Positions 10,292 to 34,704 of a stretch of DNA of 64,000 bases are shown piece by piece (the stretch's first letter is position 1; each line of letters starts with the position of its first letter). The notes under the pieces were generated by a model. It was not told the origin of the DNA, searched no databases, and saw nothing but the letters and a program-made list of their open reading frames with translations. A program made the position numbers and the translations under genes. Origin of the DNA: Gaiellaceae bacterium (GTDB lineage Bacteria > Actinomycetota > Thermoleophilia > Gaiellales > Gaiellaceae); NCBI GenBank assembly GCA_035506655.1, contig DATJOZ010000062.1, positions 3,619 to 67,618 on the forward strand. The letters are read 5' to 3'.

Positions 10292-11449
10292 TCAGCGGCT
10301 GAGGACGGCGCAGGCACTGACGCCGGGCGCGCCGTAGACGTGCGTGAAGCCCAGTCGGGGCGCGCCGGGAACCTGCCGCTCGCCCGCCTCGCCGCGGAGC
10401 TGGGCGACGATCTCGTAGACCTGGCGGAGCCCCGACGCGCCGACCGGCTCGCCGTTCGCGAGGCAGCCGCCGTCGGTGTTGACGGGGAGGCGGCCGCCGA
10501 TCTCGGTGGCGCCGGTCGCGTACAGCTCGGCCTGCTCGCCGTGGTCGCAGAGGCCGCACTCGGCGAGATGGATCAGCTCGGCGCCCGACTCGGTGTCCTG
10601 CACCTGCGCGACGTCGACGTCTCCGGGCTCCGCGCCGGCGCGCTCGAACGCCTCGCGGGCGGCGTCGACCGACGGCGACGGTGCGATCTCGAGCGGCAGC
10701 GACGGGCTGAAGACCTCGAACGACCCGGGCCGGCGCGTGCGGAACGCGACCGACCGCAGCCAGACCGGCCGCGCGTCCGGCAGACGGTCGAGGTAGTCGC
10801 GCCGGCAGACGACGAGCGCCGCCGCGCCCTCACCCGGCGAACAGAGCATGTACTGCGTCAGCGGATGCGCGAGCACGCGCGCTCCGAGGATCTCCTCCGT
10901 CGACATCGGCGTTCGGCGCCACGCGTGCGGCGTGATCGACCCGTTGCGGTACGCCTTCTCCGCGACCTGCGCGAGCGCGCGCTCCGGGATCCCGTGGTCG
11001 TGCATGTAGCGCTGGAGCTTCGCGCCGAAGAACTGCGTCGTCACCATCAGGCCGTCCTCGCCGTACCACGCCGGCAGCGACCAGTCGGCCGGGTCGTTCT
11101 GGAAGGCGCCGCGCGGATGCTTGTCGAAGCCGACGACGAGCCCGACGTCGTGCGCGCCGGACTCGAGCGCGCGCACCGCCGAGACGAGCGAGGAGCCGCC
11201 GGTCGCGCAGCCGTTCTTCACGTTGACGAACGGGAGCCCGGTCGGCCCGAGATCCGCGACCATCGTGTCAGCGTTGCCCGCGTCCTCGCTGCCGCCGTAG
11301 GCGAACTGGATCTCGGGCCACGCGACGCCGGCGTCCGCGAGCGCGGCGCGCACCGCCGCGACGCCCATCGCGAGCCCGCTCACGCCTTCGTGCCGGCCGA
11401 ACGGATGGATCCCGGCGCCGACGATCGCGATCTCGGGCGGCTCACTCAT
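10292..11449 (-). CDS. SCP-x-type thiolase-like protein (lipid-transfer-protein family), Cys-containing
   Basis: 385 aa with NVKNGCATGG and NTDGGCLANGEPVGASG. It is partnered with the DUF35 gene immediately upstream. Confidence 0.88.
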   Translation of the reverse strand: MSEPPEIAIVGAGIHPFGRHEGVSGLAMGVAAVRAALADAGVAWPEIQFAYGGSEDAGNADTMVADLGPTGLPFVNVKNGCATGGSSLVSAVRALESGAHDVGLVVGFDKHPRGAFQNDPADWSLPAWYGEDGLMVTTQFFGAKLQRYMHDHGIPERALAQVAEKAYRNGSITPHAWRRTPMSTEEILGARVLAHPLTQYMLCSPGEGAAALVVCRRDYLDRLPDARPVWLRSVAFRTRRPGSFEVFSPSLPLEIAPSPSVDAAREAFERAGAEPGDVDVAQVQDTESGAELIHLAECGLCDHGEQAELYATGATEIGGRLPVNTDGGCLANGEPVGASGLRQVYEIVAQLRGEAGERQVPGAPRLGFTHVYGAPGVSACAVLSR

Positions 11450-16235: not shown

Positions 16236-16931
16236 GTGAGTTCTCAACAGAGGAGCGACGCAGGCGTGGCACAGGCGAAGACGACGAGACGGCCGAGGGC
16301 GAAGCCCGGCGTGAAGCGCGAGCGGATCCTCGAGGTCGCGATCGAGGCGTTCGGCCGCTACGGGTACGAAGACGCGAAGTGGGCCGACATCGCCTCGGCG
16401 GTCGAGATCGGGCCGACGGCGCTCTACCACTACTTCGAGTCGAAGCAGCACTGCCTGTACGAGATCATGGGCCAGACCGTCGCCGACTTCCAGGCGCGGT
16501 TCGACCGGATCACCGCCGCCAACGCCGACGACTGGAACGAGGCGCTCGTCGAGCTGCTCGTCGACGCGTTCGACCTCACGGAGCAGGAGATGCTCCGTAA
16601 CCGGGTCCTCGTGGCGGAGCAGGGTCTGATCGGGATCCACCGTACGGCGCCGCGCGAGGAGGCCGCACGCGAGATCGCGAGGACGCGCACCCGCGACCTC
16701 GAGTTCGCCTGGGGCACGTTCCTCGCCCGCGGGATGCAGCAGGGCCACCTGCCCGAGAACGACCCGCAGCTCCTCGCCCGCGCGCTCCTCGGCCTGTCGA
16801 ACAGCGTCTGGCACTGGTACCGGCCGGGCGGGACGCTCGAGCTGCGCGACGTCGCCCGCTTCTTCGTCGCGCGGCAGCTTGCAATGCTCGGCTGCCCGCC
16901 CGAGCTCGCGGACGCGAAGTTCGCGGACTAG
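16236..16931 (+). CDS. TetR-family transcriptional regulator (paralogue 1)
   Basis: HTH region ILEVAIEAFGRYGYEDAKWADIASAVEIGPTALYHYFESKQHCL. 231 aa. Confidence 0.85.
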   Translation: MSSQQRSDAGVAQAKTTRRPRAKPGVKRERILEVAIEAFGRYGYEDAKWADIASAVEIGPTALYHYFESKQHCLYEIMGQTVADFQARFDRITAANADDWNEALVELLVDAFDLTEQEMLRNRVLVAEQGLIGIHRTAPREEAAREIARTRTRDLEFAWGTFLARGMQQGHLPENDPQLLARALLGLSNSVWHWYRPGGTLELRDVARFFVARQLAMLGCPPELADAKFAD

Positions 16932-16932
16932 C

Positions 16933-17730
16933 TCAGGTCCCGGTCCAGACCGGCTCGCGCTTCTCGAGGAACGCCGCGACACCCTCGGCGGCGTCGTTCG
17001 AGTTGAGCGTGACGCCGACGGCGAGGCGCTCCATGACCATGAGCGTCGCCGTGTCGGAGTCGAGGCTCTTGTTCAGCGTCATCTTCGTGATCGCCATCTG
17101 GAACGGGCTCTTGTCCGAGAACTGGGCGACGAACCGGTCGACGCAGTCGTCCAGCTCGTCGGCGGGGGCGCAGTCGTTCACGAGCCCCCACTCCTTCGCC
17201 TCGATGCCGGTGAGCAGCTTGCCGGAGAGCATCAGCTCCTTCGCCTTGCGCTCGCCGAGGATCCGCGGCAGCCGGTAGATCGGGCCGGCGCCTCCGAACA
17301 GCGCGCGGCGCATGTGGAAGTCGCCGATCAGCGCGTCCTCGGACGCGATCGCGAAGTCGCAGTTGATCATGATCTCGAACCCGCCGGCAGTCGTGTGGCC
17401 CTCGAGGACGCAGACCGACGGCTTGCGCGAGTTGAAGATCGAATCGAGGATGCGGGCGGAGCGCTGCGCGATCTCGAGCGCGTACGTCTGCCCGATGAAG
17501 TCGCTCTGGAGCTCGTCGAGGTCGAACCCCGAGCAGAAGGTCCCCTCGCGGCCGCGGAACACCATCACCCGCACCTCGTCGTCGGCCTCGGCGCGCCGGA
17601 CGGCGTCGTCGAGCTCCTGCAGGAGCTGCTGGCTGACCGAGTTGCGCTTGTGCGGCCGATTGAGCCAGATTCGCGCGACGTGGCCGTCGACCTCGTACTG
17701 GATCGGCTCGACTTCGACTGCACCGGCCAT
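16933..17730 (-). CDS. enoyl-CoA hydratase/isomerase (crotonase)
   Basis: 265 aa with FCSGFDL and GHTTAGGFE. A GGAGGG RBS is present. Confidence 0.9.
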   Translation of the reverse strand: MAGAVEVEPIQYEVDGHVARIWLNRPHKRNSVSQQLLQELDDAVRRAEADDEVRVMVFRGREGTFCSGFDLDELQSDFIGQTYALEIAQRSARILDSIFNSRKPSVCVLEGHTTAGGFEIMINCDFAIASEDALIGDFHMRRALFGGAGPIYRLPRILGERKAKELMLSGKLLTGIEAKEWGLVNDCAPADELDDCVDRFVAQFSDKSPFQMAITKMTLNKSLDSDTATLMVMERLAVGVTLNSNDAAEGVAAFLEKREPVWTGT

Positions 17731-17751
17731 GGAGTTCCCTCCTCGTTTGTT

Positions 17752-17796
17752 GAACTGAAGTTGTTTAAACTAGCACGGCTCTAGCCCGTGAATCAA
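17752..17796 (-). promoter_or_regulatory. promoter plus motif for the crotonase gene
   Basis: Minus strand reads TTGATT (17796-17791), 18 nt, TAGTTT (17772-17767). The plus-strand motif is GAACTGAAGTTGTTTAAACTA (17752-17772). Confidence 0.55.
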
Positions 17797-17817
17797 GACT
17801 AGACGACCGCGATTCAC

Positions 17818-17838
17818 GTACTAAACTGTATTCAATTC
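17818..17838. promoter_or_regulatory. inverted motif copy proximal to the SDR gene at 17853
   Basis: The reverse complement reads GAATTGAATACAGTTTAGTAC. A 7-bp inverted repeat GTGAATC/GATTCAC (17788-17794/17811-17817) lies beside it. Confidence 0.4.
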
Positions 17839-17852
17839 ATGAGCGTCTGTCC

Positions 17853-18611
17853 ATGAGCGAATCGCGATTCTCCCTCGACGGCCGCACCGCCGTCGTCACC
17901 GGCGCCTCGAGCGGCCTCGGGGCCCGATTCGCCGCCGTCCTCGCCGAGGCGGGCGCCGACGTGGTCGCCGCCGCACGGCGGATCGACCGCCTCGAGGAGC
18001 TGGCGGCCGCCCACCCCGCGATCCACCCGTTCGCCTGCGACGTGACCGACGACGACGGGCCGGAGCGCCTCGTCCGGGAGGCACTCGACCGGTTCGGCCG
18101 CGTCGACGTCTGCGTCAACAACGCCGGGATCTCCTCCGGCGGGCCCGAGCGGCAGGCGACGCTCGACGGCTTCCGCTCCGTCCTCCGCGTGAACCTCGAG
18201 GCGCTCTTCGCCGTCTCGCAGGCCGTCGCCGTCCCGATGCGCGAGCAGCGCGGCGGCTCGGTCGTGAACGTCAGCTCGATGTTCGGCTCCGTCGCGGCCG
18301 CGCCGGTCCCGGACGCCGGCTACGTGGCGTCGAAGAGCGCGGTGAACGGGCTGACGCGTGAGCTGGCCGCGCAGTGGGCGCCCGACGGGGTGCGCGTGAA
18401 CGCGATCGCGCCGGGCTGGTTCCCGAGCGAGATGACGGCGGAGCTCCTCGCGGACGAGAAGGCGCTGCGCTGGTTCGAGCGCCAGTGCCCGCTCGGGCGT
18501 CCGGGGAGAGTCGACGAACTCGACGGTGCGCTCCTGTTCCTCGCCTCGGACGCGTCGTCGTACTGCACCGGCCAGGTGCTCACGGTCGACGGAGGCTGGA
18601 CGATTCGATGA
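17853..18611 (+). CDS. short-chain dehydrogenase/reductase
   Basis: 252 aa with TGASSGLG, NNAG and YVASKSAV. Confidence 0.9.
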   Translation: MSESRFSLDGRTAVVTGASSGLGARFAAVLAEAGADVVAAARRIDRLEELAAAHPAIHPFACDVTDDDGPERLVREALDRFGRVDVCVNNAGISSGGPERQATLDGFRSVLRVNLEALFAVSQAVAVPMREQRGGSVVNVSSMFGSVAAAPVPDAGYVASKSAVNGLTRELAAQWAPDGVRVNAIAPGWFPSEMTAELLADEKALRWFERQCPLGRPGRVDELDGALLFLASDASSYCTGQVLTVDGGWTIR

Positions 18612-19666
18612 GCGGCGACGCCGCACCGCGCGGCATCGCCCTCCCGCGGCTGACGCCGTGGCTGACCGAGCGGCTGCCGGAGCTGGAGCCTCCGCTCCGG
18701 TTCACGCGCGTCGGCGAGGGCCAGTCGAACCTCACGTTCCGCGTCGACGACGCGGACGGCCACACGATCGTGCTGCGGCGCCCGCCGCTCGGCGAGATCC
18801 TCGCGTCGGCGCACGACATGGGGCGCGAGCATCGCATCCTCAGCGGCCTCGCGGCGGCGGGCGCGCGCGTGCCGCAGACATTGGCCTACTGCGACGACGC
18901 GGAGATCACGGGCGCGCCGTTCTACGTGATGGAGCACGTCGACGGCCTGATCGTGACGAAGGTCGAAACCGCCGAGGTGCTCGCGCCCGAGGCGCGCGCG
19001 GCCGCGGCGCGCTCCCTCGTCGAGACGCTGACCGAGTTGCAGGCGGTCGACCTCGACGCCGCCGGGCTCGCGGACTTCAAGCGTCCGGAGAGCCTCGCGA
19101 GCCGCCAGCTCCGGCGCTGGACCCGCCAGTGGCACGCGTCGAAGACGGAAGAGCTGCCGCTGATCGAGGAGACGGCGGAGCTGCTCGAGGCGCGCATGCC
19201 GGACGAGCGCGAGTCGGTGCTCGTGCACGGCGACTACCGGCTCGACAATGCGGTCCTCTCTCCGGAAGGCGACGTGCGGGCCGTGCTCGACTGGGAGCTC
19301 TGCACGGTCGGCGACCCGCTCGCCGACGTCGGCCTGCTCGTGGCGTACTGGAACGAGCTCGGCGCGGCGGCCGGGCAGTCGGGCGCGCTGTTCCGGGAGC
19401 CCGTGACCGCGGTCGCAGGCTTCCCGACCGGCAGCGAGCTCGCGGCCGAATACGCGCGCGCGTCGGGACGCGACCTGACGGAGCTCGGCTTCTGGGTTTC
19501 GTTCGCGTACTGGAAGGTCGCGATCATCGTCGCGGGCGTGTACCGGCGCTGGCTGAACGACCCCGGGAACGGGTCCGGCGCCGGCGAGCTGCAGCCGGCG
19601 GTCGCGCGGCTGGCCGGGCTCGCGCGCGCGGCGCTCGATTCCGACCCGCTGGCGGTGGAATCGTGA
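18608..19666 (+). CDS. APH-like phosphotransferase (ACAD-associated kinase family)
   Basis: ATG 18608 overlaps the SDR stop (ATGA). It has the Brenner motif HGDYRLDN and DWE...GDP. Confidence 0.85.
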   Translation: MSGDAAPRGIALPRLTPWLTERLPELEPPLRFTRVGEGQSNLTFRVDDADGHTIVLRRPPLGEILASAHDMGREHRILSGLAAAGARVPQTLAYCDDAEITGAPFYVMEHVDGLIVTKVETAEVLAPEARAAAARSLVETLTELQAVDLDAAGLADFKRPESLASRQLRRWTRQWHASKTEELPLIEETAELLEARMPDERESVLVHGDYRLDNAVLSPEGDVRAVLDWELCTVGDPLADVGLLVAYWNELGAAAGQSGALFREPVTAVAGFPTGSELAAEYARASGRDLTELGFWVSFAYWKVAIIVAGVYRRWLNDPGNGSGAGELQPAVARLAGLARAALDSDPLAVES

Positions 19667-20301
19667 GGTCGAAGCCGGGCGTCAAGCGCGCGCAGATCCT
19701 CGAGGTCGCGGCCGAGCAGTTCGGGCGCTACGGGTACGAGGAGACGAAGTGGGCCGACGTCGCCGAGTCGGTCGGGATCGGATCGACCGCCCTCTACCAC
19801 TACTTCGAGTCGAAGCAGCACTGCCTGTTCGAGATCATCGCGAAGGCCGTCACCGATTTCCGCGAGCAGTTCGACCGCCGGATCGCGGAGCACGACGACT
19901 GGGGCGAAGCCCTCGTCGCCGTGCTGCGCGGCGGGTTCGAGGTGTCCGAGTGGGAGATCCTCCGGCTGCGCGTGCTGACGGCGGAGCACGGGCGCATTGC
20001 CGTGCACGCGTCGCTCCCGCGCGAGGAGGCGGCGCGCGCGACCGCGCGGGCGAACAAGCGGGACCTCGAGTTCGCCTGGGGCGCGTTCCTCGCGCGCGGG
20101 ATGGAGCAGGGCCTGCTGCCCGAGCGGTCGCCGCAGCTGCTCGCGCGCGCGGTGATCGGCCTCTACAACAGCGTCTGGGTCTGGTACCGCCCCGGCGGCT
20201 CGCTGCCACTCGAGGAGGTCGCGCGGTTCTACGTCGACCGCCAGCTCGACGTGCTCGGCTGCAACCCGACGGACGCTGCCCGCTGGCTGGCGGCCGCATG
20301 A
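19663..20301 (+). CDS. TetR-family transcriptional regulator (paralogue 2)
   Basis: GTG 19663 overlaps the upstream stop (GTGA). ILEVAAEQFGRYGYEETKWADVAESVGIGSTALYHYFESKQHCL closely matches paralogue 1. Confidence 0.85.
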   Translation: MRSKPGVKRAQILEVAAEQFGRYGYEETKWADVAESVGIGSTALYHYFESKQHCLFEIIAKAVTDFREQFDRRIAEHDDWGEALVAVLRGGFEVSEWEILRLRVLTAEHGRIAVHASLPREEAARATARANKRDLEFAWGAFLARGMEQGLLPERSPQLLARAVIGLYNSVWVWYRPGGSLPLEEVARFYVDRQLDVLGCNPTDAARWLAAA

Positions 20302-21449
20302 ACGCGGCGATCGTCGGCCTGGGCATCACCGAGATGGGGAAGATCTACGGCCGGAGCGCGGCCGACTTCGCCGCCGAGGCCGTCGCTCTCGCCCTCGACG
20401 ACGCAGGGCTCCGGAAGTCCGACATCGACGGCCTCCTGATCAACGGCAACGGCAACGTCGACATGGAGCCGCGCCTGCAGATGGCGCTCGGCCTCGAGGA
20501 CCTGACGATGCTGAACGTGATGAGCGCGGCGGGGTCGACGTCGGGCGCAATGGTGCAGTACGCGGCCCTCGCCCTCGACGCGGGAGTCGTGAGCCACGTC
20601 GTGCTCCTCTACGCCGACACGCCGCTGAAGGAGGACGTCGGCGCGGCCGCCGCCTATGCGGCCCGAGGTGCGTGGAACGGCATGAACGGCCTGCGCGGCG
20701 CGTACGGAGAGTTCGGCGGGAATCCGCCGTACGCGCTCGCCGCGCGAAGGCACATGCACCTGTACGGGACGACGAGCGAGCAGCTCGGCGCGATCGCCGT
20801 CGCGCAGCGGAAGTGGGCGCTGATGAATCCGCGCGCGCAGATGACGAAGCCGATGACGCTCGAGGACCACCAGAGCTCGCGCCTCGTCGTCGATCCGTTC
20901 CACCTCTTCGACTGCTGCCTCGTCTCGAACGGCGCGGTCGCCGTGATCATGACGACGGCCGAGCGCGCGAAGGAGCTCCGCCAGCCTCCCGTCTACGTCA
21001 GGGCCGCCGCGCAGGCCGCCCCCGGCGACAACCAGCGGAGCGGACGGGATCCTGCGATCGACACCGGGGCGAGGCGGGCGAGCGAGCTCGCGTTCTCGCT
21101 CGCCGGTATCACGCGCGACGACGTCGACGTCCTCGAGCTGTACGACTGCTACACGTACACGGTCCTCGTCACGCTCGAGGACTACGGCTACTGCGCAAAG
21201 GGCGAGGGCGGCGCCTTCGTCGAGGACGGCAGGCTCGGCCCCGGCGGCTCGCTCCCGACGAACACGGGCGGCGGCCAGCTCTCGTCGTACTACATGTGGG
21301 GCTTCACGCCGCTTTCGGAAGCGGTGATCCAGGCGCGTGGCCAGGCCGGCGAGCGGCAGGTCGAGAAGAACGACGTCGTGCTCGCGAGCGGCAACGGCGG
21401 CGTCCTGAACTACCACTCGACGACGATCCTGAGCAAGCATGCCGCCTGA
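20298..21449 (+). CDS. Cys-less SCP-x-type thiolase homologue (Ltp2-like, possible retro-aldolase)
   Basis: ATG 20298 overlaps the TetR stop (ATGA). It has a thiolase-like fold, but NVMSAAGSTSG and NTGGGQLSSYYMWG replace the Cys-bearing motifs of the paralogue at 10292. Confidence 0.85.
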   Translation: MNAAIVGLGITEMGKIYGRSAADFAAEAVALALDDAGLRKSDIDGLLINGNGNVDMEPRLQMALGLEDLTMLNVMSAAGSTSGAMVQYAALALDAGVVSHVVLLYADTPLKEDVGAAAAYAARGAWNGMNGLRGAYGEFGGNPPYALAARRHMHLYGTTSEQLGAIAVAQRKWALMNPRAQMTKPMTLEDHQSSRLVVDPFHLFDCCLVSNGAVAVIMTTAERAKELRQPPVYVRAAAQAAPGDNQRSGRDPAIDTGARRASELAFSLAGITRDDVDVLELYDCYTYTVLVTLEDYGYCAKGEGGAFVEDGRLGPGGSLPTNTGGGQLSSYYMWGFTPLSEAVIQARGQAGERQVEKNDVVLASGNGGVLNYHSTTILSKHAA

Positions 21450-21855
21450 CGCGAACGTCCGGTCGCAGCGGCCGGTGCCGACGCCGGACGAGGCCAGCGC
21501 GCCGTTCTTCGCCGGCGCCGCGAGAGGCGAGCTCATGCTCCAGCGCTGCCGCGCGTGCGGCGCGTTCATGTGGCCGGTCAAGCCGCGCTGCGTCGAGTGC
21601 TTCTCCGGCGACGTGGAATGGGCGCCGGCGAGCGGACGCGCCGTCCTCTACAGCTTCGCGGTCGTCCACCAGCGCTACCCGGGCTTCGACGAGCCGTACG
21701 TCGTCGCAACGGTGGAGACGCCCGAAGGCGTCCGGTTCAACACGAGCGTCGCCGGCGCGGACCCGGACGAGCTCGAGATCGGCATGCCGCTCGAGGTCGC
21801 GTTCGACCGGGTCTCCGACGACGTCGTCGTCCCGACGTTCAGGCCGGCCGCGTGA
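21439..21855 (+). CDS. DUF35 OB-fold/zinc-ribbon protein
   Basis: 138 aa with the ribbon CRACGA...CVEC. It overlaps the preceding gene by 11 nt. Confidence 0.8.
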   Translation: MPPDANVRSQRPVPTPDEASAPFFAGAARGELMLQRCRACGAFMWPVKPRCVECFSGDVEWAPASGRAVLYSFAVVHQRYPGFDEPYVVATVETPEGVRFNTSVAGADPDELEIGMPLEVAFDRVSDDVVVPTFRPAA

Positions 21856-22640
21856 GCTACGAGTTCGTCACCTACGAGAAGCGGGACCGGATCGCGACGA
21901 TCACGCTGAACCGGCCCCAGGTGATGAACGCGCTGCACCTCGACGCGCACTTCGAGCTGAAGGAGATCTGGGAGGACTTCCGCGACGACCCCGAGATCTG
22001 GGTCGCGATCCTCACCGGCGCGGGCGAGCGGGCGTTCTCGGCCGGCAACGACCTGAAGGTGACGGCGGAGCGCACGGCCGCCGGCGACGACGTCCAGGGC
22101 CGCGCTCGACCGCCCTTCGGACGCATCACCCGGGACTTCGACTGCCCGAAGCCGATGATCGCCGCCGTCAACGGCGTCGCCGTCGGCGGCGGGCTCGAGC
22201 TGGCGCTCGCCTGCGACATCATCGTCGCCGCGGATCACGCGCGGTTCGGCCTGCCCGAGCCGCGGGTGGGCCTGATGGCGGGCGCGGGCGGCATCCACCG
22301 CCTCGCGCGGCAGGTGCCGTTCAAGCTTGCGATGGGGCTGCTCATGACCGGCCGTCTGATCGGCGCCGACGAGGCGTACCGGATCGGGCTCGTGAACGAG
22401 GTCGTACCGCTCGCGGAGCTGATGCCGGCCGCGGAGCGCTGGGCAGCGGAGATCCTCGAGTGCTCGCCGAACTCGCTCCGCCTGACGAAGGAGGCGGTCT
22501 TCGACGGGCTCCAGCACAGCGTCGACGACGCGCTCGAGCGCGACGCTGCGCGGGTCGCGCGGCTGCTCGCGTCCGACGACTACGTCGAGGGCCCGAAGGC
22601 GTTCGCGGAGAAACGGAAGCCCGAGTGGACGGGGCACTAG
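21852..22640 (+). CDS. enoyl-CoA hydratase (crotonase)
   Basis: GTG 21852 overlaps the DUF35 stop (GTGA). FSAGNDLK and VNGVAVGGGLELALACD are present. Confidence 0.9.
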   Translation: MSYEFVTYEKRDRIATITLNRPQVMNALHLDAHFELKEIWEDFRDDPEIWVAILTGAGERAFSAGNDLKVTAERTAAGDDVQGRARPPFGRITRDFDCPKPMIAAVNGVAVGGGLELALACDIIVAADHARFGLPEPRVGLMAGAGGIHRLARQVPFKLAMGLLMTGRLIGADEAYRIGLVNEVVPLAELMPAAERWAAEILECSPNSLRLTKEAVFDGLQHSVDDALERDAARVARLLASDDYVEGPKAFAEKRKPEWTGH

Positions 22641-22651
22641 CCGAGACTCCG

Positions 22652-24730
22652 GTGCGCCTGCGTGAGCTGCTGTCGCCGAGGAGCGTCGTGCTCGTCGGCG
22701 CCTCCGACCGGTCGGGCTGGTCCAGCGGGTCGTACGCGAACTTCGAATCGGTCGGATACGACGGCGCGCTCTACCTCGTGAACCGGAACGGCGGCGAGGT
22801 GCACGGCCGCGCCGCGTTCACGAGCTGCGCCGAGATCGGCGAGCCGGTCGACCTCGCGCTCATGCTCGTCGGCGCCGCGGCGCTTCCCGGTGCGCTCGCG
22901 GACGCGGCCGCGGCCGGAGTCCGATCCGCCGTCGTCCTCGCGGCAGGCTTCGGCGAGACCGGCGCCGACGGCGTCCGCGCCCAGGAGGAGCTCGTCGAGC
23001 AGTGCCGCGAGCTCGATCTGCTGTGCCTCGGGCCGAACTGCCTCGGGTTCGTCAACGTCGTCGACCGGGCGCCCGCGTGGTCGGGGCAGCTGATGCCCGT
23101 CGCCCCGGGCGGCGTGGCGATCGTGTCGCAGAGCGGTGCGACGGCCTACGCGATCGCCGCGTTCGCCGGCGCGCAGAACATCGGCCTCAGCCACGTGATC
23201 TCGACGGGAAACGAGGCGATGGTCGACACGCTCGACATGGCCGCGGCCGTCCTCGAGGACGACCGCGTGCGCGCGCTTGCGATGTTCCTCGAGTCGATCC
23301 GCGACGCCGAGCGGCTCCGGCGGCTCGCCGAGCGCGCGGCCGAGCTCGAGAAGCCGATCGTGATGCTGAAGGTCGGGACGAGCGCCCTTGCCGCGGAGAT
23401 CGCGCTCACCCACACCGGCGCGCTCGTCGGCGACGACCGGCTCGTCGACGCTGCGCTGCGGCAGCTCGGCGTCGTCCGCGTCGACTCGATCGAGCAGCTC
23501 GCGATGACGGCGGGGCTGCTCGCGCGCACCGGCCCGCTGCCGCCCGGCGGGCTCGGCGTCGTCTCGATCTCCGGCGGCGCCTGCGACATCGTCGCCGACC
23601 GGGCCGAGGCCGCCGGCGTCCCGCTCGAGCCGCTCGCGGAGACGACGCAGGCGCGCCTCGCGGGCGTCCTCGCCGCGTACGGCACCCTGCGCAACCCGCT
23701 CGACATCACGGGCGCGGCATCCGCGGACCCGCAGATCTTCGCCGACGCCCTCGTCGCGCTCGCCGACGATCCGTCGGTCGCGCTCCTCGCCGCGATTCAT
23801 GTGCTCCCGACGGAGGAGCGGGCGCGATACCGATCGACGATCGAGGTGATCGCCTCGGGGCTGCGCGCCGCCGGGAGCCGCGGGCTCCTCGTCGACCAGA
23901 CCGTGCACGACATCGATCCCTACACGGCGGCCGCACTCGACGAGCTGGGCGTGCCGCACGCGATGACCGGCCTCCGCGACACGGTCGACGCCGTCGGCGG
24001 CGCGATCCGCTGGTCTGCGTGGCTCCGCCGCGCGCGCACGGCGCCGCCGTCGGCGGACGAGCTCGAGCTCGACGACCGTCGCGGGCAGTGGTCCGAGGCG
24101 CGCAGCCTCGAGCTCCTGGCCGCCAACGGGATCCCGGTCGTCCCGGCGCGGCTCGTCGCGACGCGCGAGGACGCGGTCGATGCCGCGCGCGAGCTCGGCT
24201 ACCCCGTCGTCGTCAAGGTCGTCTCGCCCGAGATCCTCCACAAGAGCGACATCGGCGGCGTCGCGCTCGACCTGCGGACCGCCGACGCCGTCGACGACGC
24301 GTTCGACCGTGTGACCGCGGCCGGATCGGCCGTCGACGGCGCGCACGTCGAGGGCGCGCTCGTCGCGCCGATGCGCCGGGGCGGCCTGGAGCTCATCGTC
24401 GGCGTGGTCCGCGACGCGCATTGGGGCCCGACGCTCGCGGTGGGCCTCGGCGGCGTCTTGGTGCACGTCGCCGACGACACGAGCCTCCGGCTCCTGCCGG
24501 TGGACGAGCGCGACGTTCGCGACATGCTCGACGAGCTCCGCGGGAGGGCGCTGCTCGACGGCGTCCGCGGCGGGCCGGCCGCGGACGTCGATCGCCTCGT
24601 CGCGACGATCGTCTCGTTCGCCCGTCTCGCCGAGCGGCTCGGCCCGCGCCTCGCGTCGGTCGAGATCAACCCGCTCCGGGTCGACGGCGCGGCGGTCGAG
24701 GCGCTCGACGCCGTCGTCGTCTGGTCGTAG
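22652..24730 (+). CDS. NDP-forming (ADP-forming) acyl-CoA synthetase, fused alpha/beta type
   Basis: GTG 22652. It has an N-terminal CoA-binding domain (VVLVGASDRSG), succinyl-CoA-synthetase-like middle domains and a C-terminal ATP-grasp (LGYPVVVKVVSPEILHKSDIGGV). Confidence 0.85.
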   Translation: MRLRELLSPRSVVLVGASDRSGWSSGSYANFESVGYDGALYLVNRNGGEVHGRAAFTSCAEIGEPVDLALMLVGAAALPGALADAAAAGVRSAVVLAAGFGETGADGVRAQEELVEQCRELDLLCLGPNCLGFVNVVDRAPAWSGQLMPVAPGGVAIVSQSGATAYAIAAFAGAQNIGLSHVISTGNEAMVDTLDMAAAVLEDDRVRALAMFLESIRDAERLRRLAERAAELEKPIVMLKVGTSALAAEIALTHTGALVGDDRLVDAALRQLGVVRVDSIEQLAMTAGLLARTGPLPPGGLGVVSISGGACDIVADRAEAAGVPLEPLAETTQARLAGVLAAYGTLRNPLDITGAASADPQIFADALVALADDPSVALLAAIHVLPTEERARYRSTIEVIASGLRAAGSRGLLVDQTVHDIDPYTAAALDELGVPHAMTGLRDTVDAVGGAIRWSAWLRRARTAPPSADELELDDRRGQWSEARSLELLAANGIPVVPARLVATREDAVDAARELGYPVVVKVVSPEILHKSDIGGVALDLRTADAVDDAFDRVTAAGSAVDGAHVEGALVAPMRRGGLELIVGVVRDAHWGPTLAVGLGGVLVHVADDTSLRLLPVDERDVRDMLDELRGRALLDGVRGGPAADVDRLVATIVSFARLAERLGPRLASVEINPLRVDGAAVEALDAVVVWS

Positions 24731-24733
24731 CGA

Positions 24734-26071
24734 TCAGGTCCCGACCGCGACCGCCGTCTCGAGCGCGGTCCTCGCCGCGCGGAGCCCGAAGACGAGCGCC
24801 GCCGCGATCCCGCCCGCGTAGGCGCGGACGTAGAGGCCGCCGGCATCCGCGCCCGCGGCGTGGAGCCCGGGGATCGGTCGGCCGTCGCCGTTGAGGACAC
24901 GCGCCTCCGAGTCGACGAGGAGCCCGCCGAAGGTGAACGTGATCGCGGGCACGACCTCGATCACATAGAACGGCGGATCCTGGATCGGCACCGCGTCGTA
25001 CCGGCGCGGCGGGTCGAACGAGCCGTCGGCGCAGCTGCGGTTGAAGTCGATGAGCGCCCGGCGCACGGCCTCACCGTCGTAGCCCCACTCCGGCGGCATC
25101 AGCGCGAGCTCGTCGAGATCCTCGGCGATCGCACAGCGTGCGCCGCGCCGGTAGCAGAGGTCGAACGTGTCCACCGGGCGGACGCCCTCGACGTACGGCC
25201 GGAGGATCCACTCGTCGCGGATCCGCGAGTCGGAGACGATCAGCGCCCGCGCCTCGGGCTGCTCGAGCAGCGCCATCGTGTTCAGGTGGTCTCCGACGGT
25301 CTCGTCGACGAACCGCCGGGCGTCGAGGTTGAGCATCAGCGAGTGCTCGCTGTAGTAGAGCGAGAGCGCCACGAAGTCGTCGTGCTCGCCGAAGCTGACG
25401 CCGGACGGCATCAGGTGCCCGTAGAACCCGGCGTCCTCGGGGCCGAACGCCGCGCCGGCGCTCTGGCCGAGCCGCAGCCCGTCGCCGGTGCTGTACCAGT
25501 TCCCGCGCAGTGGGATGTCGCGCGCGTGGGGATGGATCAGGGACGCGCGCAGCTCGGGGTCGCCCTGGAACCCGCCGGTCGCGAGGACGGTCGCGTCCGC
25601 CGCGATCGTGCGCACCTCTCCCGACGCGAGCTCGATCTCGGCGCCCCGCACCGCACCGTCCTCCACGAGCAGCCGGCGCGCGGTCCCGCCGAGCACGAGC
25701 TCGGAGCGAGGATCGTCGCGGACGATCAGCTCGCACGCGCGCAGGTAGTTGAGGAGCGCGGTCTGGTGGCCGCGTCCGAAGCGGAGCACCGTGACGGCCG
25801 GCTGAACCTCGACGCCGAGGGAGCGCACCCACTCGACCGCCGGCTCGAAGTCGTCGATCAGCCGCTCGGCGAGCGCCGGGTCGCCGTCGGGAATCGCCTC
25901 GCGGAGAGCCTCGAGCGAGGGCGCCGTCCAGATGAAGCCCGCGTGCAGCGCGCTGCCGCCGAGCTCGCCCGCCTCGACGAGGACGACCGAGCGCCCCTGA
26001 CGCACCGACCAGGCCGCGGCGGACAGCCCCGCCATCCCGCCGCCAAGCACGAGGAGATCGGTTTCGATCAT
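24734..26071 (-). CDS. FAD-dependent oxidoreductase (fumarate-reductase/KstD-like flavoprotein family)
   Basis: 445 aa with the N-terminal dinucleotide motif DLLVLGGGMAGLSAA and C-terminal GLHAAGADAGG. Confidence 0.85.
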   Translation of the reverse strand: MIETDLLVLGGGMAGLSAAAWSVRQGRSVVLVEAGELGGSALHAGFIWTAPSLEALREAIPDGDPALAERLIDDFEPAVEWVRSLGVEVQPAVTVLRFGRGHQTALLNYLRACELIVRDDPRSELVLGGTARRLLVEDGAVRGAEIELASGEVRTIAADATVLATGGFQGDPELRASLIHPHARDIPLRGNWYSTGDGLRLGQSAGAAFGPEDAGFYGHLMPSGVSFGEHDDFVALSLYYSEHSLMLNLDARRFVDETVGDHLNTMALLEQPEARALIVSDSRIRDEWILRPYVEGVRPVDTFDLCYRRGARCAIAEDLDELALMPPEWGYDGEAVRRALIDFNRSCADGSFDPPRRYDAVPIQDPPFYVIEVVPAITFTFGGLLVDSEARVLNGDGRPIPGLHAAGADAGGLYVRAYAGGIAAALVFGLRAARTALETAVAVGT

Positions 26072-33320: not shown

Positions 33321-33679
33321 GCGAGGCGACGTTTCTCCCCGTGTACTTCGCGAAGCTCGACGCCGGCGAGGACGTCGTGCCGATGCTCGCGCCCGACTTC
33401 ACGTTCTCGCTGCTGTGGGCGACGGACGCGGGCGCGCAGGAGTTCGCCGGCAGCTTCGACGCGTTCGAGGGCTATCTCGCCCAGCGCGATCCCGACGGCC
33501 AGCTGCATCACATCTCCAAGTCGCTCCGCGACGGGAGCACCGAGGTCGCGTCCGGCTGGACGACGCGCCACGGCGAGCCGCTCGGCTCGTTCACGTTCGC
33601 CGTCGAGCTCGACGACGACGGGCGCGTGCGCCGCCTGTTCGCCGCGCGCACCGAGACGTTCGACGGCGTCCCCTTCTAG
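33317..33679 (+). CDS. small hypothetical protein, possibly NTF2/SnoaL-like
   Basis: ATG 33317 overlaps the ACAD stop (ATGA). 120 aa with high GC3. The fold assignment is a guess from size and composition. Confidence 0.6.
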   Translation: MSEATFLPVYFAKLDAGEDVVPMLAPDFTFSLLWATDAGAQEFAGSFDAFEGYLAQRDPDGQLHHISKSLRDGSTEVASGWTTRHGEPLGSFTFAVELDDDGRVRRLFAARTETFDGVPF

Positions 33680-34704
33680 ATCCGGACGAGCGTCTTGCCG
33701 GTGTTGTCGCCGCGCATCAGCCCGGCGAGCGCCTCCGGCGCGTGCTCGAGCCCGTCGACGATCGTCTCGCGGTAGCGCAGTCGTCCGTCGCGGAGCCAGG
33801 CTCCGACCTCCCGCGTCAGCTCGGGGAGAAGGTCGACGTTGCTGCTGCCGCGGAAGCCGCGGATGGTCAGGTTCTTCGCCACCGTCATGAACAGGTTGCT
33901 CGGCCCCGGCGGCGGCTCGTCCGCGTCGTACTCCGAGATCGATCCGCAGACGGCGACGCGGCCGAAGTCGCGAAGGGCACCGAGAGCCGCCTCGAGGTGT
34001 CCGCCGCCGACGTTGTCGAAGTAGACGTCGATGCCGTCGGGAGCGGCGGCGCGAAGCAGCTCCGGGAGCGCCCCCGTCCTGTAGTTGAAGGCGGCGTCGA
34101 GCCCGAGCTCGCCGAGCAGGTACGCGACCTTCTCGTCGGAGCCGGCGCTGCCGACCACGCGGTGGCCCCGGATCTTCGCCATCTGCGCGACGAGGCTGCC
34201 GACCGCGCCCGCGGCCGCGGAGACCCAGACGACGTCGCCGTCCCGGAGCTCGGCGACCCGGAAGAGGCCGGCGTAGGCGGTCAGCCCGTTGCCGCCGAGG
34301 ACGCCGAGGTACGCCGGTGCCGGTGCGACGTCGAGGTCGAGCTTCGTCAGCGTGGCGATGCCTCCCAGGGCCGGCACTCCGGCCTCGACGACGGCGTACT
34401 CCCGCCACCCGGCGGCGTGCCACACCGTGTCGCCCGGCTCGAACCCGTCCGCGCGCGACTCGACGATCTCGCCGACGGTGAAGATCCCGTCCATCGGCGC
34501 CTCGAGCGGGAACGCGGCGAAGTACCCGGCCGGCGCCTCGTCCCGCAGGCGGAGCCGGAGCGCCGCGTCGACCGACGTCCACGTGTTGCGCACGAGCACC
34601 TCGCCCGGCTCCGGCGCACGCACCTCCACGTCGACGATGCGGAAGTCCGACGGCCGCACCTCGCCGCGCGGGTACGACACGAGCTGAACCTCACGCCCGT
34701 TCAT
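33676..34704 (-). CDS. NADP-dependent oxidoreductase (MDR, enone/alkenal reductase YncB-like)
   Basis: ATG 34704 overlaps the upstream stop (ATGA). 342 aa with the AAAGAVGSLVAQMAK nucleotide motif. Confidence 0.88.
   Translation of the reverse strand: MNGREVQLVSYPRGEVRPSDFRIVDVEVRAPEPGEVLVRNTWTSVDAALRLRLRDEAPAGYFAAFPLEAPMDGIFTVGEIVESRADGFEPGDTVWHAAGWREYAVVEAGVPALGGIATLTKLDLDVAPAPAYLGVLGGNGLTAYAGLFRVAELRDGDVVWVSAAAGAVGSLVAQMAKIRGHRVVGSAGSDEKVAYLLGELGLDAAFNYRTGALPELLRAAAPDGIDVYFDNVGGGHLEAALGALRDFGRVAVCGSISEYDADEPPPGPSNLFMTVAKNLTIRGFRGSSNVDLLPELTREVGAWLRDGRLRYRETIVDGLEHAPEALAGLMRGDNTGKTLVRI

Follow-up and report, generated by a model that had tools for sequence, protein, structure and literature searches.

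Thiolase-fold aldolases that are bound to a DUF35 domain have so far been known solely from steroid side-chain cleavage, where they are represented by Ltp2, Sal, and Atf1. The TcLtp2-ChsH2 complex of Thermomonospora curvata (Protein Data Bank (PDB) entry 6ok1) has a thiolase fold without the nucleophilic cysteine, carries the tyrosines Tyr294 and Tyr344, and needs a DUF35 domain (a Cys4 zinc ribbon plus an OB fold) that is fused to the MaoC hydratase subunit ChsH2; the hydratase acts immediately upstream of the aldolase, and Ltp2 is located in steroid catabolic clusters with no CoA ligase in its module. In the bile-acid C5 side-chain aldolase of Comamonas testosteroni, CtSal-CtShy (9myr; PMC12329534), mutagenesis showed the use of Tyr302 and Cys304 of a YDCY motif, the cysteine being the catalytic acid, and Gln347 and Gln352 stabilize the thiolate, Gln352 replacing Tyr344 of Ltp2; the DUF35 domain of this system, with a Cys3His1 zinc site, is part of a fusion with a MaoC hydratase. 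The atf1-chsH4-chsE6-kstR3 operon of Mycolicibacterium neoaurum (PMC10398937) encodes an aldolase together with a stand-alone DUF35 protein of 138 amino acids (ChsH4) and a TetR regulator, but neither a crotonase nor a CoA ligase; according to related work in M. smegmatis, Atf1 belongs to the Sal type and its substrate is a sterol intermediate. Here we analyze a stretch of 64,000 nucleotides from a Gaiellaceae bacterium (assembly GCA_035506655.1, contig DATJOZ010000062.1, positions 3,619 to 67,618), hereafter the window, which contains consecutive genes for a thiolase-fold protein, a stand-alone DUF35 protein, a crotonase, and a fused nucleoside diphosphate (NDP)-forming acyl-CoA synthetase. 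We propose that these four genes probably form a self-contained module that activates and hydrates a carboxylic acid, itself probably not a steroid, and cleaves the product by a retro-aldol reaction.

The bbs operon for benzylsuccinate beta-oxidation encodes the CoA-transferase BbsEF, the crotonase BbsH, the short-chain dehydrogenase/reductase (SDR) BbsCD, and BbsAB, a DUF35 protein and a thiolase. It has the same parts as the locus studied here, namely CoA activation, a crotonase, and a thiolase-fold protein accompanied by a separate DUF35 protein (BbsAB, 7pxp), but BbsB keeps the nucleophilic cysteine and the GHP histidine and is a true thiolase that acts after a dehydrogenase. The hydroxycinnamate route (FerA/FerB, Fcs/Ech) follows the logic proposed here, namely CoA activation of a 2-enoic acid, hydration, and retro-aldol cleavage to an aldehyde and acetyl-CoA, although in that case one crotonase-fold enzyme both hydrates and cleaves, and there is neither a thiolase-fold protein nor DUF35. 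The FerA ligase of Sphingobium SYK-6 is of the NDP-forming type. Full-text literature searches on DUF35, aldolase, crotonase, ADP-forming, and naphthenic acids gave no description of the clade reported below or of the combination of a crotonase with an NDP-forming ligase, in agreement with the original prediction, in which no such combination was known as characterized, and every paper on a DUF35-aldolase found in these searches concerns steroids.

Active Site of the Thiolase-fold Protein

The original prediction was based on a comparison by eye with an in-window paralog encoded at 10292-11449 on the minus strand, and the coordinates and motifs that it gave for both proteins were exact; the thiolase-fold protein reads NVMSAAGSTSG and NTGGGQLSSYYMWG, and the paralog reads NVKNGCATGG and NTDGGCLANGEP. 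The sequences were realigned with MAFFT and HMMER, using as references this paralog, the zebrafish SCP2 thiolase, BbsB, and PDB sequences, and the catalytic residues of the DUF35-dependent thiolases were set from the PDB alignments; residue conservation was counted over 194 family sequences. The nucleophilic cysteine of the paralog, of the SCP2 thiolase, and of BbsB aligned with Ala78 (20529-20531), as had been proposed, and the family has tyrosine, alanine, phenylalanine, or glycine at this site and cysteine in none of its members, the N-x-C-[AS]-[TS]-G signature of true thiolases being thus absent. The GHP histidine is also missing, its position being taken by Tyr332 in SSYYMWG (codons of Tyr331-Tyr332 at 21288-21293), which is invariant (194/194).

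The alignment with the SCP2 thiolase, in contrast, did not bear out the idea that the acid/base cysteine had been exchanged for glutamine, because the cysteine in the GGC of the paralog lies off the canonical position and the SCP2 thiolase has a leucine there (GGLISKGHP). The position of the acid/base cysteine in the HDCF motif of the SCP2 thiolase corresponds to Cys284, which is found in 192 of the 194 sequences, and therefore this residue is retained, whereas the histidine of HDCF has become the tyrosine of a Tyr282-Asp-Cys284-Tyr285 motif (YDCY, encoded at 21141-21152). Accordingly, the protein was wrongly described as Cys-less: it has cysteines at positions 206, 207, 284, and 299, the first two of which are fully or almost fully conserved across the family.

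Compared with the characterized aldolases, Tyr282 aligned with Tyr294 of Ltp2 and Tyr332 aligned without gaps with Tyr344 of TcLtp2 (HMMER alignment), so that both catalytic tyrosines of an Ltp2-type enzyme are found, while His296 in the YDHF motif of Ltp2 is replaced by Cys284. The Sal set of Tyr302, Cys304 in YDCY, and Gln347 has its counterparts in Tyr282, Cys284, and Gln327 (21276-21278), the last being glutamine or glutamate across the family and aligning also with a glutamine of Ltp2, but Tyr332 stands where Sal has Gln352. CtSal likewise has a small residue at the nucleophile site, and Gly368 is listed among the key residues of the thiolase-fold protein. The presence of YDCY, Gln327, and Tyr332 in the same proteins indicates that the family merges the Tyr/Cys dyad of Sal with the second tyrosine of Ltp2. 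The use of tyrosines, which had been suggested by analogy with Ltp2, is in agreement with this conservation (Tyr282 and Asp283 are both found in 194 of 194 sequences), but the tyrosines are only half of the likely catalytic set, to which Cys284 also belongs.

Relationship to Described Aldolases and Thiolases

The best PDB sequence match of the thiolase-fold protein was 4u4e (2e-71), followed by TcLtp2 (6ok1, 3e-62), CtSal (9myr, 1e-47), and the first true thiolase, 7yvy (1e-38). The identities were 38% to 4u4e, 36% to Ltp2, and 31% to Sal, and the bit scores were also lower against Sal than against Ltp2. An AlphaFold2 model built with a 38-sequence alignment had a pLDDT of 91.5, and a Foldseek search with this predicted structure placed 4u4e, Ltp2 (6ok1), and Sal (9myr) ahead of an archaeal thiolase, TbSLP, and BbsB. 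The best match in both sequence and fold, 4u4e, is a putative thiolase of Sphaerobacter thermophilus from structural genomics; it has a glycine at the nucleophile site but differs in its YDSF motif and in its second loop (SYTHPGMYG), and it gives no functional anchor.

In a quick IQ-TREE phylogeny, in which CtSal was not among the placed sequences, the family formed its own clade (SH-aLRT 99, stem length 0.88) inside the nucleophile-less group that includes Ltp2 and apart from the Cys-bearing thiolases. Rhodococcus opacus, Pimelobacter simplex, and Aeromicrobium ginsengisoli each have a family copy with 60-80% identity and separate paralogs with about 40% identity or less, which by their motifs are true Ltp2 (YGGGAAC, YDHF, GEAY-IHG), Ltp3/4-like proteins, and Cys-bearing thiolases; the true Ltp2 orthologs (L090, L091, L098, and L101) carry YDHF. 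Orthology of the family with Ltp2 was therefore rejected, given the separate clade and the coexistence with true Ltp2 in three steroid-degrader genomes.

Other motif sets were observed among the paralogs. The in-window paralog combines NGCATGG, QDTESG (instead of HDCF), and GGC..NGEP (instead of GHP), and it is without both canonical histidines; because nearly letter-for-letter matches occur in Aeromicrobium and Pimelobacter (L099 and L100), this set defines a real subfamily. R. opacus has 22 matches to the thiolase-fold protein in at least five motif classes, one of them a nucleophile-less paralog (L104) with the hybrid motif YDCF plus NEGY-VHG.

DUF35 Protein, Crotonase, and Acyl-CoA Synthetase

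The DUF35 protein has a Cys4 zinc ribbon (C37, C40, C51, and C54) and an OB fold, and thus four cysteines where the Sal-type zinc finger is Cys3His1. It is closer to aldolase-bound domains (6ok1_B, ChsH2, 1e-23; 9myr_B, Shy, 2e-19) than to the thiolase-bound ones (6esq_E, 6e-13; BbsA, 3e-8), and we predict that it is the obligate partner of the aldolase, with which it would form a complex as in the Ltp2 and CtSal systems. As stated in the original prediction it stands alone, but this does not set the locus apart from the steroid systems as had been thought, since the pair of Atf1 and ChsH4 is a precedent for a stand-alone DUF35 protein beside a thiolase-fold aldolase. A search of longer homologs for DUF35 fused to a crotonase or an aldolase gave only one protein, of 347 amino acids and likely mis-called, which is a weak negative result.

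The assignment of the hydratase as a crotonase, and not as a MaoC-type enzyme, was confirmed. The protein has both catalytic glutamates of a hydratase, Glu116 (GGGLE) and Glu136 (GLPE), it matched 4jwv in the PDB (1.7e-55), and its scores were below the cutoffs of all equivalog models, including those of DpgD and EchA19. The synthetase has the phosphohistidine motif THTGA of its superfamily, with His254, aligned with SHTGA of 8wzu, and it matched 8wzu, an ADP-forming 4-hydroxybutyrate-CoA ligase (1.1e-93), and DddX (2.3e-74).

Distribution and Linkage of the Module

When a single genome was scanned for each species, at least 597 loci were identified. The neighborhoods were analyzed in 80 loci, which are the most similar subset of these and give biased counts, and linkage was counted in the 60 of them with at least 5 kb on either side. 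The family occurs in Actinomycetota (Gaiellaceae, with 92-94% identity, Rhodococcus, Nonomuraea, Nocardia, Aeromicrobium, Pimelobacter, Solirubrobacterales, and Acidimicrobiia), in Chloroflexota (Ktedonobacteria, Thermogemmatispora, and Tepidiformaceae), and also in Acetobacteraceae, Neobacillus vireti, and SAR324. The copies named in databases are all called thiolase or acetyl-CoA acetyltransferase.

In 59 of the 60 loci, the thiolase-fold gene had a DUF35 gene next to it. The orthologous crotonase was present in 24, always with a CoA-activating enzyme, and the synthetase was present in 13. The coupling to the synthetase described in the original prediction is thus real in the window but not fixed, since all crotonase-positive loci without it (n = 13) have instead a fused double family-III CoA-transferase and a luciferase-like oxidoreductase. 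The interchange of two unrelated activating enzymes beside the crotonase suggests that their role is substrate activation. In the Solirubrobacterales version (L030, L032, and L036-L052), genes for aldehyde dehydrogenase (ALDH), zinc-dependent alcohol dehydrogenase (Zn-ADH), thiolase-fold protein (THL), DUF35 protein, enoyl-CoA hydratase (ECH), luciferase-like oxidoreductase, and CoA-transferase were observed in this order, the last encoding 804 amino acids with two family-III domains fused; paired family-III CoA-transferase domains are also used in the bbs system.

The co-occurrence of the four genes proposed to act together was confirmed, the set being conserved across three phyla; its gene order in Ktedonobacteria differs from that in actinomycetes, which makes two orders in all. 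The block was intact in Rhodococcus, Nonomuraea, Nocardia, Aeromicrobium, Gaiellaceae, Ktedonobacteria, Thermogemmatispora, and Neobacillus; in this Firmicute the order is TetR-ECH-THL-DUF35-ACS-MFS (ACS, acyl-CoA synthetase; MFS, major facilitator superfamily transporter).

Genes for ALDH, Zn-ADH, a CurA-like enone reductase, and SDRs are found repeatedly around the module, which would agree with a carbonyl product undergoing further conversion. Those for ALDH and Zn-ADH are flanking genes in 13 to 19 of the 80 loci. Orthologs of the enone reductase (about 67% identity) were found in 15 of the 80; in the window its gene is 9 kb from the module in another operon, but it lies directly downstream of the synthetase gene on the same strand in locus L008 (14466-15473) and is adjacent in L010 (8723-9748) and L004 (16886-17911). 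The transporters beside the module vary, being SBP_bac_11 ABC systems in the window, Rhodococcus, and Nonomuraea, and MFS proteins in Neobacillus and Ktedonosporobacter. When transporters and housekeeping neighbors were compared across the loci, no substrate could be assigned from them.

Gene Organization in the Window

The gene map was based on GC3, and domains were assigned by Pfam and NCBIfam scans of the window proteins (Table 1). The four assignments of the original prediction were confirmed by Pfam, but the gene set is larger, since the four genes are the distal part of seven, all on the plus strand, to which SDR, APH-family kinase, and TetR genes are added upstream. Neighboring genes overlap by ATGA or GTGA, apart from an 11-nt overlap between the thiolase-fold and DUF35 genes and an 11-nt gap at one junction, and the codirectional genes from 17853 to 24730 form one operon.

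Table 1. Features of the operon and related genes in the window
Feature	Coordinates	Strand	Evidence
SDR oxidoreductase, first gene of the operon	17853..18611	+	Pfam adh_short_C2 (1.7e-60); ATGA overlap with the next gene
APH-family kinase resembling the ACAD11 kinase domain, accessory	18608..19666	+	Pfam APH (3.7e-47)
TetR-family regulator within the operon	19663..20301	+	TetR_N and TetR_C_24; GTGA and ATGA overlaps on either side
Thiolase-fold protein, 383 amino acids, predicted retro-aldolase	20298..21449	+	Pfam Thiolase_C_1 only
Stand-alone DUF35 protein, 138 amino acids	21439..21855	+	Pfam zf-ChsH2 and OB_ChsH2_C
Crotonase-fold enoyl-CoA hydratase	21852..22640	+	Pfam ECH_1 (2.3e-69)
Fused alpha-beta NDP-forming acyl-CoA synthetase, 692 amino acids	22652..24730	+	Pfam CoA_binding_2, Succ_CoA_lig, and ATP-grasp_5
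Divergent promoter region with inverted repeat	17731..17852		AT-rich within a 71% GC genome
CurA/PTGR1-like NADPH enone reductase	33676..34704	-	NCBIfam CurA, 295 bits (below cutoff)

The operon is preceded by a divergent ECH gene (16933-17730), and the region between the two contains an inverted repeat of 13 nt, TAGCCCGTGAATC (17782-17794) and GATTCACGTACTA (17811-17823), with a 16-nt spacer. The TetR regulator of the operon is a paralog of that encoded at 16311-16931, and the repeat is, as judged from the sequence, a candidate operator for both.

The combination of SDR, APH, and TetR genes is joined to the module, by synteny, solely in the nearest relatives (L005 and L007), and the SDR gene is therefore regarded as accessory. 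The APH protein matched 3dxp (2.5e-46) and ACAD11 (8v3v, 1e-43) in the PDB. The translationally coupled SDR and kinase genes resemble the LvaD/LvaA pair or the 4-hydroxyacyl-CoA kinase logic of ACAD10/11, and no acyl-CoA dehydrogenase (ACAD) gene is attached to the pair. The four-gene module itself has no gene for a 3-hydroxyacyl-CoA dehydrogenase, which speaks for the retro-aldol reaction proposed below. Convergent with the operon is a gene for an FAD_binding_2 flavoprotein (24734-26071, minus strand), which scored best against models of TcuA-like tricarballylate dehydrogenases (153 bits, below cutoff) and is kept beside the module in the nearest relatives; its identification as KstD was rejected (110 bits versus a cutoff of 789), since it is closer to the TcuA-like proteins.

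Proposed Reaction and Alternative Explanations

The gene content and its coupling, the loss of the nucleophile, the conservation of the Sal/Ltp2 residues, the fold, and the genomic linkage are the observations from which we propose the following reaction sequence. The synthetase, whose nucleotide product we infer, or elsewhere the CoA-transferase, would make the CoA thioester of a 2-enoic acid; alternatively, the acid activated might be one that is converted to the 2-enoyl-CoA by an ACAD from another locus. The crotonase would then add water to give a 3-hydroxyacyl-CoA, and the thiolase-fold protein, in complex with the DUF35 protein, would split the C2-C3 bond in the retro-aldol direction to yield an aldehyde or ketone and acetyl-CoA (or propionyl-CoA). 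By analogy with CtSal and TcLtp2, Tyr282 may act as the base on the 3-hydroxyl, Cys284 and/or Tyr332 as the acid protonating the enolate, and Gln327 may tune Cys284, with the backbone of Gly368 contributing to the oxyanion hole. In its core, therefore, the original prediction of a hydratase coupled to a thiolase-fold retro-aldolase of the Ltp2 kind, with a DUF35 protein and an NDP-forming CoA ligase, appears to stand at the level of sequence comparison. Candidate substrates, among which the data do not discriminate, are beta-branched or alicyclic-acetic acids, 2,4-dienoic acids, and phenylpropenoic acids, which were selected because their beta-carbon is not oxidizable or because cleavage would give a useful aldehyde.

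Several observations weigh against this proposal. The whole mechanism is drawn by analogy with proteins of 31-38% identity, and Gln161 of CtSal, which is part of its oxyanion hole, aligns with a glycine in the thiolase-fold protein. The operon begins with an SDR gene, whose product might be a 3-hydroxyacyl-CoA dehydrogenase; a keto intermediate would then be indicated. Besides the bias of the neighborhood counts, about half of the loci have no crotonase or CoA-activating gene nearby and the link to the hydratase is thus not universal; in Tepidiformaceae and Acetobacteraceae only the pair of aldolase and DUF35 genes is kept, beside unrelated genes. The identity of 60-70% across phyla and the housekeeping neighbors in some lineages (arginine biosynthesis, cysS) could mean that the substrate is a small common metabolite or that the protein has another role.

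As the closest characterized relatives of the thiolase-fold protein are the steroid aldolases Ltp2 and Sal, it might cleave steroid or sterol side chains as an aldolase in place of Ltp2, Ltp3/Ltp4, or Sal, an explanation to which a heteromeric ACAD-like pair encoded 6.5 kb downstream and a score of 249 bits of the crotonase against the EchA19 model would also lend themselves. We consider it the least probable of the alternatives, given that this score is far under the cutoff of 400, that identity is just 36% to Ltp2 and 31% to Sal, and that the family, a separate clade, coexists with true YDHF/GEAY Ltp2 and Ltp3/4-like genes in R. opacus, P. simplex, and Aeromicrobium and is found as well in Ktedonobacteria, Tepidiformaceae, Acetobacteraceae, and Neobacillus. 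Moreover, the genome of the window (a 3.25-Mb assembly, 90.8% complete) gave no match to KshA_C and no sign of steroid ring catabolism, and its only two SCP2-thiolase-like genes are both within the window. It is also very unlikely that the protein is not an aldolase at all but a decarboxylase, a noncatalytic scaffold, or a thiolase using Cys206, Cys207, or Cys284 as nucleophile. The activity of TbSLP, with a YDCF motif, is confined to malonyl-CoA decarboxylation at a very low rate (PMC12329534), and the strong conservation of Cys206 and Cys207 could be read in this sense, but both belong to a DCC segment that aligns with the structural LCSPGEG/CCPTSDG segment of true thiolases, off the nucleophilic elbow; invariant Tyr282, Asp283, and Tyr332 together with near-invariant Cys284 argue for a live Sal/Ltp2-type active site, and CtSal, with the same YDCY motif, is a proven aldolase without decarboxylase activity.

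Returning to the retro-aldol module, the direction of the reaction might be the opposite one, with acetyl-CoA added to an aldehyde or ketone, dehydration by the crotonase, and release of a 2-enoic acid plus ATP by the synthetase. Aldolases and NDP-forming synthetases are reversible, and the ALDH, Zn-ADH, and enone reductase neighbors indicate that carbonyl compounds are in play; nevertheless, the probability of this alternative is slim, since the CoA-transferase found in Solirubrobacterales fits substrate activation better than ATP harvest, the characterized relatives are all catabolic lyases, and transporter genes lie beside the module. A refinement at the substrate level, which we regard as unlikely although less so than the preceding alternatives, is a 4-oxo/4-hydroxy acid route (levulinate/ACAD11-like) in this lineage, in which the ligase would activate the acid, the SDR would reduce the 4-oxo group, the APH kinase would phosphorylate the 4-hydroxyl, an ACAD encoded elsewhere would eliminate the phosphate to give a 2-enoyl-CoA, and the crotonase and aldolase would finish the sequence. 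The match of the kinase to the ACAD11 domain, the translational coupling of the SDR and kinase genes to the module, the 4-hydroxybutyrate-CoA ligase as best characterized relative of the synthetase, and the ACAD genes in the window are in agreement with such a route, and for the window organism the coupled SDR and ACAD11-like kinase suggest an added entry from 4-oxo or 4-hydroxy acids. However, the operon itself is without an ACAD gene, the three upstream genes accompany the module solely in the nearest relatives, and the known Lva pathway needs no aldolase, as it reportedly ends in ordinary beta-oxidation.

Significance of the Family

That thiolase-fold aldolases work with DUF35 in steroid catabolism (Ltp2, Sal) and that a stand-alone DUF35 protein can accompany an aldolase and a TetR regulator in M. 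neoaurum (PMC10398937) was already established; what is new here, on sequence evidence, is the clade, its hybrid catalytic set, the non-steroid context, and the different type of hydratase. We advance only tentatively, and with some doubt, the broader claim that this is a family of non-steroid acyl-CoA retro-aldolases, widespread in Actinomycetota, Chloroflexota, Pseudomonadota, and Bacillota, which in combination with a crotonase and either an NDP-forming ligase or a CoA-transferase would allow redox-free removal of C2 units from 2-enoic or beta-branched acids beyond the reach of ordinary beta-oxidation. In that case the family could supply the missing genes for orphan 3-hydroxyacyl-CoA lyases such as the (1-hydroxycyclohexyl)acetyl-CoA lyase or a 3-hydroxy-3-methylacyl-CoA lyase.

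If the protein is a true aldolase, hundreds of "acetyl-CoA acetyltransferase" annotations would be wrong. Enzymes of this kind are of interest as biocatalysts for C-C bond formation, and culturable hosts of the family include Rhodococcus opacus, R. jostii, Aeromicrobium ginsengisoli, Neobacillus vireti, and Ktedonosporobacter rubrisoli. The hybrid set of Tyr-Asp-Cys-Tyr plus a second tyrosine would lie between the two described mechanisms and could show the evolutionary path that connects them. For the biology of the carriers, a true aldolase activity would mean that non-oxidative shortening of acyl-CoAs is a general bacterial process, which takes place in many lineages of soil and water without steroid degradation.

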